A stretch of 64,000 nt of DNA from Kiloniellaceae bacterium (GCA_021776115.1 JAJFGN010000045.1:83025-147024); one strand, 5' to 3'. Positions 43,640 through 43,837 are shown, counted from the stretch's first letter. Notes: a model not told the origin generated them from the sequence alone. Program-made: numbers and translations.

Positions 43640-43673
43640 AAAGAAAAAGCCGGGAAATCGATGATTTCCCGGC
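43640..43673 (-). terminator. Intrinsic terminator closing the candidate sRNA
   Basis: GCCGGGAAATC-ATC-GATTTCCCGGC perfect 11-bp stem followed by TTTTTCTTT on the minus strand. Confidence 0.85.
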
Positions 43674-43765
43674 AAGTTTAACAGGGAGGCTTCACGTCTG
43701 GGAGACGTGCGGTCCGAGCCCGAGACATAATCCCAGGCGGGACCGAGTATGCTGCGATGCAGCAC
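43640..43765 (-). ncRNA. Candidate AbcR-like trans-acting sRNA
   Basis: Four hairpins; CUCCCA loop motif (43699-43704) and single-stranded CCUCCC (43684-43689); own terminator; immediately downstream of the LsrB/VtlR-type lysR. Confidence 0.65.
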
Positions 43766-43771
43766 AAAGTA

Positions 43772-43837
43772 AACATAGCGCTCCTTGACCAATTCTCCAG
43801 GGGTAAAATCGGCAGGGAAGCTATGCGCTAAGAGCAT
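43772..43837 (-). promoter_or_regulatory. Candidate LTTR-activated promoter of the sRNA
   Basis: CTGGAG-N17-TATGTT (43800-43772); ATGC-N7-GCAT T-N11-A dyad at 43823-43837, centred ~65 bp upstream of the predicted start. Confidence 0.5.

Follow-up and report, generated by a model that had tools for sequence, protein, structure and literature searches.

A 64,000-nt stretch of DNA from a Kiloniellaceae bacterium (GCA_021776115.1 JAJFGN010000045.1:83025-147024), here called the window and counted from its first letter, carries a small RNA (sRNA) element on its minus strand, behind the genes trxB and lsrB. The comparative data indicate that this element is a real, unannotated sRNA gene of about 125 nt, and that its pattern is not due to chance. 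It quite probably encodes an independent, LsrB-activated, trans-acting anti-Shine-Dalgarno (anti-SD) sRNA that represses transporter mRNAs, and would be the positional and regulatory counterpart of AbcR1. An earlier reading made from the DNA alone (the sequence-only reading) had proposed an AbcR-equivalent circuit at this site. The operator geometry, the position and the LsrB ortholog agree with that proposal; however, the RNA itself falls outside the AbcR family, and its 3' half is SorX/MmgR-like.

The minus-strand sequence quoted in the sequence-only reading is present at 43765-43640, and it folds into the four hairpins described there, with a minimum free energy (MFE) of -60.8 kcal/mol (ViennaRNA). 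Dinucleotide shuffles of the sequence gave -34.7 +/- 3.5 kcal/mol (z = -7.42), and none of the 200 shuffles folded as well. The fourth hairpin had been taken for a terminator, and the terminator scan also called one: its stem has 11 bp, including 7 G-C pairs, and a 3-nt loop, and is followed by UUUUUCUUU; an A/U-rich stretch is visible before the U-tail. The motif CUCCCA, which had been placed at the loop of the third hairpin, does lie at the tip and is invariant in the relatives; only its CCC is unpaired in the MFE fold, because the flanking U-A pair closes the loop. The unpaired CCUCCC reported after this hairpin was recovered at 43689-43684, inside an unpaired linker of 19 nt that also contains the predicted main seed CCUCCCUGUU (43689-43680).

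Covariation analysis in related genomes, which had been suggested as a check, showed that hairpins 1 and 2 and the terminator covary. In 11 close relatives the four-hairpin structure was 89% paired, compared with 33-42% when the partners were slid; in hairpin 2, 8 of the 15 pairs were changed on both sides among these relatives. The terminator stem was paired in 96.8% of the cells in an alignment of 51 diverse sequences, with 5 of 8 pairs changed on both sides, and the pairing fell to about 30-39% in the control with slid partners. Hairpin 1 has one variable pair, which is C-G in 24, U-A in 17, U.G in 14 and C.A in 3 of the 58 distinct sequences; such wobble intermediates are a sign that selection acts on pairing in the RNA and not on a palindrome in the DNA. 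No variation was seen in hairpin 3 or in the linker across the aligned sequences. Their invariance carries no information on pairing, and it indicates a strong sequence-specific constraint, as expected of seed regions. The 3' half as a whole is nearly invariant and consists of the CUCCCA hairpin, the single-stranded GCCUCCCUGUU and the terminator; the middle part is variable, and the transcript length ranges from about 100 to 220 nt among the lineages. The variable middle hairpins of other lineages (for example, loci L040, L053, L056 and L033) often have C-rich loops (GCCCCCCGC, CUCCCC), which may represent a third anti-SD motif; the window copy has no such loop.

By blastn, the element was present in all but one of 61 genomes (60 of 61) from the same genus, family and order. 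An exact core of 38 nt, ACGTCTCCCAGACGTGAAGCCTCCCTGTTNAACTTGCC, is carried by at least 120 named genomes among the matches listed, and the carriers there include Kiloniella, Pelagibius, Nisaea, Thalassobaculum, Tistlia, Fodinicurvata, Rhodovibrio, Oceanibaculum, Hwanghaeella and Aestuariispira. The nearest relatives are metagenome-assembled genomes (MAGs) of the Kiloniellaceae, and the host therefore does not belong to the Rhizobiales; this agrees with the earlier view of a non-Rhizobiales alphaproteobacterium, with Kiloniella, Pelagibius, Nisaea, Thalassobaculum and Rhodovibrio as relatives. Several MAGs with the exact core bear the label Rhizobium sp., Rhizobiaceae, Flavobacteriales, Gemmatimonas, Akkermansiaceae or Acidoferrum. 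Since their lsrB loci resemble the Kiloniellales type, mislabelling of bins or contaminant contigs is the probable explanation.

To cover the class, a covariance model of the 3' module of the sRNA (76 positions), named R1, was used. R1 matched in 158 genomes of a class-wide sample of 301, with E-values from 1e-27 to 1e-2 and scores up to 93 bits. Of 150 loci, 129 have an lsrB ortholog as the immediate upstream neighbour in the same orientation, and trxB usually precedes lsrB. At the class level, 18 of the 30 best R1 loci sit behind lsrB, and 17 of the 30 best lsrB loci have the sRNA just downstream. The distance from lsrB to the sRNA ranges from 158 to about 700 nt among the loci. At lsrB loci that lack the sRNA, another gene directly follows lsrB, and no Rfam family was found there. 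Copies of the sRNA away from lsrB also exist; their upstream open reading frames (ORFs) are heterogeneous, and no second conserved context was recognized among them. Among the first 30 loci, only 2 have lpxO as the next gene downstream.

Variation in copy number was also observed. One complete genome (G275, locus L212, 2591-3192) has three tandem R1-type copies directly downstream of lsrB, scoring 54.5, 50.1 and 39.9 bits, an arrangement that recalls the AbcR1/AbcR2 tandem; two to five R1-type copies are present in several other genomes. Another genome (G281, locus L204) has a decayed copy downstream of lsrB, in which the dyad is intact and GAAGCCUCCCUGUU is kept; its hairpin 3 is altered (CACGUACCCAGGUGUG), its terminator region is different, and R1 gives 17 bits.

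The upstream gene had been regarded as an LsrB/VtlR ortholog, and the protein comparison bears this out. Its product matches LsrB of Agrobacterium tumefaciens, whose cryo-EM structure is PDB 9hh1 (PMC11975290), over residues 34-329 with E 2.7e-98 and 51% identity; the next LysR-type transcriptional regulator (LTTR) follows at E 2.9e-32. This match, together with the adjoining trxB gene, identifies the window protein as the LsrB/VtlR ortholog. The homology starts only at residue 34, so the likely true start of lsrB is the ATG at 44845. Its DNA-binding domain is highly conserved with respect to 9hh1. The location of lsrB immediately downstream of trxB was stated for the Rhizobiales (PMC11975290), and the window has the same order. 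LsrB has also been called unique to the Rhizobiales (PMC11975290); our finding of LsrB orthologs (E <= 1e-60) linked to trxB in 219 genomes of a class-wide sample of 401 does not fit that claim. According to the alignment, the redox cysteines C144, C236, C244 and C273 of A. tumefaciens LsrB are replaced by V, L, S and V in the window ortholog, and its aligned part (residues 34-329) has no cysteine at all. C144 and C273 are the conserved redox cysteines of the Agrobacterium protein (PMC11975290). The signal of the window LsrB thus cannot be thiol oxidation of LsrB itself, though the gene still follows trxB.

The promoter elements CTGGAG-N17-TATGTT and a dyad ATGC-N7-GCAT centred at -65 had been noticed earlier, and both are present as claimed. 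Counted from G43765, the dyad occupies -72 to -58 (43837-43823) and overlaps a VtlR-type half box, GCAT-AGC-TT-CCC-T, at -61 to -49 (43826-43814). The ATGC-N7-GCAT pattern is unique in the window and occurs 45 times in the 4.3-Mb genome. Of 155 distinct loci, 142 have the exact dyad no more than 420 nt from the core, where 0.0076 would be expected per 420 nt from the background of the same loci. The spacer is not conserved; the arms of the dyad can be extended to AGCYATGC/GCATRNC, with a TG 8 nt further on. The loci anchored at hairpin 1 also have a CTATNT -10-like box about 7-10 nt upstream and a weak CTGGNN -35 box, with the dyad further upstream.

The same arrangement was observed in Rhizobiaceae. 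Two reference loci (L214 and L215), from Sinorhizobium alkalisoli and Rhizobium sp. NXC14, were reached by a protein search with the LsrB sequence of PDB 9hh1. In both, the Rfam model ar15 recognizes a tandem pair of AbcR genes (107-123 bits), which lies downstream of lsrB and on its strand. The lsrB-proximal abcR1 copies (L214 3540-3560, L215 3440-3460) have ATGC-N7-GCAT from -72 and GCAT-N3-TG-N3-T at -61; the distal abcR2 promoters of both loci have neither the dyad nor the half box. It has been reported that abcR1 is LsrB-dependent, with a box at -61 to -49, and that abcR2 is RpoH1-dependent (PMC8844928). The VtlR box was defined as GCAT-N3-TG-N3-T (PMC7486931), and binding of LsrB/VtlR at abcR1-type promoters was shown by electrophoretic mobility shift assays and reporter truncation (PMC8844928, PMC7486931). 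Since the dyad starts at -72 and the GCAT box at -61 in the window as well as at abcR1, the operator and its geometry are common to abcR1 and the sRNA gene. The strict published box, written as GCAT-N3-T[GT]-N3-T, fits only 41 of 157 loci, compared with 142 of 155 for the full dyad. The larger ATGC-N7-GCAT dyad includes the published VtlR half box as its right arm. Other ATGC-N7-GCAT-N8-TG sites are located in genome G000 at C78 ~16447 (-), C36 ~5158 (+) and C85 ~26306 (-), and 9 extended sites occur in 4.3 Mb; they may be further members of the LsrB regulon or chance occurrences.

Targets were predicted in the window's own genome, where 3,622 genes were called crudely, with approximate gene starts. 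A ranking of whole regions by RNAduplex was uninformative, since it ignored the structure of the sRNA itself, and contiguous seed complements were used instead. A complement to the linker with an unbroken run of 9 or more bases was present in 20 translation-initiation regions, and twenty shuffled seeds gave 0-12. Ten of these 20 matches belong to exported-looking proteins, and 8 of the 10 are periplasmic solute-binding proteins (SBPs) according to Pfam, which was run on those 10 (SBP_bac_1/5/3/6/8, TctC and NMT1_3). Expansion of the 8 matches with phmmer gave a set of 36 SBP-like genes. The linker complement ACAGGGAG is found at the ribosome site in 8 of these 36 genes, compared with 11 of the remaining 3,586 (odds ratio 93, p = 2.9e-12), and AACAGGGAG is found at the ribosome sites of 6 SBP-like and 2 other genes. 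The SBP share among ribosome-site matches is only 3.6% for plain GGAGG and 3.7% for the 3'-extended GGGAGGC. The target signal must therefore lie in the linker's UGUU extension, not in strong Shine-Dalgarno sequences in general. The gene tctC, which encodes a tripartite tricarboxylate transporter (TTT) receptor in the window, had already been named as a candidate target; its ribosome site contains a perfect 10-nt complement to CCUCCCUGUU. A non-transporter candidate is a 678-aa protein at 37996-40032 (+), which looks by eye like an elongation-factor-G-like GTPase and has ACAGGGAGG 14 nt before its ATG.

At the gathering thresholds, Rfam assigned no family to the sRNA in the window or in 40 related loci, save for one borderline match to SorX; the other passing match, int-alpA, is unrelated. 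Below the thresholds, the 3' half of the sRNA matched suhB/MmgR (25.7 bits, threshold 41), SorX (24.6 bits, threshold 46.6), SorY and BjrC1505. SorX has the best E-value for the window sRNA (E 0.0012), and suhB has the highest bit score. A class-level relative with the same core reached 46.8 bits against the SorX threshold of 46.6. An Infernal search with the Rfam ar15 model (RF02345, threshold 40 bits) had been proposed as the check for AbcR identity; neither the locus nor the whole genome yielded a match to it at E <= 10. In the reverse test, R1, run without filters, did not exceed 4.7 bits on the genuine AbcR1 and AbcR2 of L214 and L215. As the covariance tests fail in both directions, the sRNA is not filed under ar15. 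Weak ar15 matches in 200 class-sampled and 20 chosen genomes, sets without Rhizobiaceae, proved to be MmgR copies and were discarded. The sRNA shares with SorX, SorY, MmgR and BjrC1505 a layout of a short hairpin, a single-stranded CCUCCCU(GUU)..ACUU and a terminator. Genuine MmgR copies (about 63 bits) exist elsewhere in the sRNA-bearing genomes, so MmgR and the sRNA are separate genes. These comparisons indicate that the sRNA is a distinct, class-wide, SorX-like family in the slot of AbcR1, which is captured by no Rfam model at threshold. Literature searches with the sequence strings returned nothing relevant.

A mechanism could be proposed as follows. LsrB from the upstream gene would bind the ATGC-N7-GCAT dyad centred at -65 and activate the weak promoter. 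An sRNA of about 125 nt would be made from this activator-dependent promoter of its own and would end at the intrinsic terminator, which probably also ends read-through from trxB-lsrB, as there is no other terminator in between. The single-stranded CCUCCCUGUU, and probably the CUCCCA tip as well, would pair in trans with the Shine-Dalgarno regions of mRNAs (AACAGGGAGG-type sites). The targets would chiefly be the mRNAs of periplasmic SBPs of ABC, TTT and TRAP/TAXI transporters. Pairing would block the access of ribosomes and reduce transporter synthesis, with Hfq probably bound at the U-tail. AbcR1/2 and SorX are known to block translation of their transporter targets (PMC8844928, PMC9438474). 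Trimming by RNase E to the conserved 75-nt module is possible, as for SorX. We infer the transcription start, the binding of LsrB, the dependence on Hfq, the direction of regulation and the signal.

Several observations weigh against such an LsrB-activated, trans-acting sRNA. No RNA-sequencing run was found for the locus, and three runs of unknown kind contained only stacked contigs of relatives on the core, with no transcript ends. A generic sigma-70 promoter scan did not call the sRNA promoter, and its -35 box is weak. The SBP set was seeded from the matches themselves, and the gene starts are crude. The loop complement of CUCCCA showed no SBP enrichment at the ribosome sites of the same genome; the earlier suggestion that CUCCCA is an AbcR-type seed thus does not extend to the target signal, which comes from the single-stranded CCUCCCUGUU. 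Moreover, the terminator scan called no terminator between the lsrB stop (43955) and the sRNA, so read-through and processing could account for part of the sRNA, as for SorX. The strongest form of this idea is that the RNA is only a 3'-untranslated region (UTR) product, cut by RNase E from the trxB-lsrB transcript with no promoter of its own, and that the dyad serves another purpose. The invariant 3' part of about 75 nt has the size of mature SorX (PMC9438474), and one relative reaches the SorX threshold. However, the dyad, the -35/-10-like boxes and hairpin 1 stay in a fixed register in more than 100 loci despite the variable distance to lsrB, the same -72 dyad drives the experimentally LsrB-dependent abcR1 promoter (PMC8844928), and copies away from lsrB exist. 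A pure 3'-UTR origin is considered improbable, and both routes may coexist. It is more improbable still that the element does not act in trans and is merely the lsrB terminator or 3' UTR, or an lpxO leader; this explanation could hardly be maintained. The element does have co-directional genes on both sides and a terminator at its end; but the 38-nt unpaired or loop-bearing core is invariant across many families while the terminator stem varies freely, lpxO rarely follows, detached copies are present, and transporter ribosome sites are enriched in the seed complement.

The identity of the RNA and of its regulator should also be considered. The sRNA might be a true but highly diverged AbcR1 (alpha-r15) ortholog that belongs in that family. 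Its position, strand and operator geometry are those of abcR1, and both RNAs have a CUCCCA hairpin tip, a single-stranded C-rich anti-SD motif and a terminator. Their 5' ends are similar (GUGCUGCA in the sRNA and AGCUGAUGCA in AbcR1), and the Rfam clan CL00108 unites ar15 with suhB/MmgR, one of the best weak matches here. Nevertheless, the ar15 model, which gives 107-123 bits on real AbcRs, finds nothing here, R1 does not recognize the real AbcRs, and the order of the modules differs, with two extra 5' hairpins and no small hairpin between the second anti-SD motif and the terminator. Orthology with AbcR1 is thus regarded as unlikely. Another regulator might bind the dyad, with the linkage to lsrB being incidental. 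The half box in the window has TT where the Rhizobiales consensus has TG, one mismatch to GCAT-N3-TG-N3-T, and the window LsrB lacks the redox cysteines of the studied Agrobacterium protein, so that its activity and signal may differ. On the other hand, gene and site stay linked across many families, the site and its position are identical to those in promoters with proven LsrB/VtlR binding (PMC8844928, PMC7486931), and the DNA-binding domain shows high conservation. That some other regulator binds in place of the adjacent LsrB is very improbable on this evidence.

The features of the locus are collected in Table 1. On the minus strand, trxB and the lsrB-like lysR gene lie upstream of the sRNA, and lpxO lies downstream; trxB is upstream of lysR in most related loci. 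A 114-aa ORF at 43544-43888 (-), which overlaps the sRNA, was rejected as a gene, as it has no Pfam match and shows non-triplet indels in close relatives. Two ORFs just upstream of trxB, 46135-46890 (-) of 251 aa and 46903-48543 (-) of 546 aa, are without a Pfam or NCBIfam match. A molybdopterin oxidoreductase gene at 41587-42594 (+) adjoins the cassette; it has the Pfam domain Oxidored_molyb and is MsrP/YedY-like.

Table 1. Coordinates of the sRNA gene, its predicted control elements and the associated genes in the window
Feature	Position	Strand	Basis or remarks
trxB (thioredoxin-disulfide reductase)	44957..46087	-	TIGR01292 406 bits (cut-off 343); Pfam Pyr_redox_2; first gene of the conserved trxB-lsrB-sRNA cassette
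lsrB/vtlR ortholog (LysR-type regulator)	43955..44944	-	PDB 9hh1 match; HTH_1 and LysR_substrate domains
Predicted LsrB operator, AGGC-ATGC-N7-GCAT-AGC-N5-TG	43813..43841	-	dyad conservation; match to abcR1 promoters
Putative activator-type promoter: weak -35 CTGGAG (43800-43795), -10 CTATGT/TATGTT (43778-43772), spacer N17	43772..43800	-	read from sequence
sRNA gene, ~118-126 nt	43640..43765	-	predicted start G43765 to U-tail; fold z-score, conservation, pairing
Hairpin 1, conserved 5' stem-loop GUGCUGCA-UCG-CAGCAU	43749..43765	-	in at least 105 of 155 loci
Hairpin 2, variable two-part stem	43710..43745	-	length and sequence differ between lineages
Hairpin 3, CUCCCA (43704-43699) at tip, anti-SD motif 1	43693..43709	-	invariant ACGUCUCCCAGACGU across the order and 29 class-level loci
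Linker AAGCCUCCCUGUUAAACUU, 19 nt, anti-SD motif 2	43674..43692	-	unpaired in MFE and centroid folds; invariant
Rho-independent terminator with U-tail	43640..43673	-	stem 43673-43649; called by terminator scan
tctC (tripartite tricarboxylate transporter receptor), predicted target	27908..28888	+	AACAGGGAGG 16 to 7 nt before ATG; Pfam TctC 105.9 bits

LsrB/VtlR and the AbcR RNAs have been studied as host-interaction regulators of rhizobia, Agrobacterium and Brucella. The data presented here extend the circuit to free-living marine lineages and suggest that a regulator-plus-sRNA circuit is widespread in the Alphaproteobacteria, not confined to the Rhizobiales. Most LsrB orthologs across the class appear to have a different, nearly invariant anti-SD RNA at the AbcR1 position behind the same operator, and SorX would be tied to AbcR-type logic. 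A concrete seed, CCUCCCUGUU, and a target signature, AACAGGGAGG at transporter ribosome sites, could be tested in cultured Kiloniella, Pelagibius, Nisaea and Thalassobaculum. The cysteine-free LsrB raises the question of what the regulator senses outside the Rhizobiales. As a tentative idea, which we hold to be possible rather than probable, trxB-lsrB-sRNA might be an ancestral alphaproteobacterial module, in which one LsrB-controlled anti-SD RNA gave rise to the present sRNA, to SorX (moved behind cenR in the Rhodobacterales) and to AbcR1/2 (remodelled and duplicated in the Rhizobiaceae), with the operator fixed at -72; the regulator in the window would have lost thiol sensing or never had it, and would throttle nutrient-uptake transporters on another signal.

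Among the known systems, BjrC1505 (RF02356; Bradyrhizobium, Methylorubrum) gave a full-length weak alignment to 43644-43782, with 17.1 bits against a threshold of 50; it is otherwise similar in its length of about 140 nt, and the Rfam consensus has several 5' hairpins, CCUCCCUGUU..ACUU and a terminator. MmgR (alpha-r8, suhB RF00519) has a hairpin, a single-stranded CCUCCCU..ACUU and a terminator, and it is in the Rfam clan of ar15; however, the window score of 25.7 is below 41, and the true MmgR copies (63 bits) are at other sites of genomes that carry the sRNA. SorX (RF02784; Rhodobacter/Cereibacter sphaeroides) shares the 3' module of a short hairpin, (A/G)CCUCCCUGUU-NNAC-U and a terminator, and its mature form of about 75 nt has the size of the conserved part of the sRNA. 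SorX represses the transporter mRNA potA (PMC9438474); the 75-nt RNA is cut by RNase E out of the cenR/ompR-1 mRNA's 3' UTR, under RpoHI/HII control (PMC9438474). The sRNA differs from it in lying behind lsrB with an LTTR dyad and a -10 box, whereas SorX comes from the cenR/ompR-1 3' UTR; the window copy is under the Rfam threshold, and the SorX hairpin has no CUCCCA tip.

AbcR1 (alpha-r15, RF02345; Sinorhizobium, Agrobacterium, Brucella) is different in sequence family, as no covariance model matched in either direction, and in the order of the modules, since the sRNA has two additional 5' hairpins and no small hairpin between the second anti-SD motif and the terminator. Only a single sRNA copy is present here, compared with the AbcR1/AbcR2 tandem, and the host belongs to the Kiloniellales, not the Rhizobiales, with an LsrB ortholog that is cysteine-free in its aligned part. 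Nevertheless, both genes are located directly downstream of trxB-lsrB on the same strand, and both have the dyad from -72 with the GCAT half box at -61. Both RNAs have two anti-SD motifs, one at a CUCCCA hairpin tip and one single-stranded, followed by a terminator. Moreover, the mRNAs of transporter solute-binding proteins, which are known targets of AbcR (PMC8844928, PMC5461406), are also the predicted targets of the sRNA.

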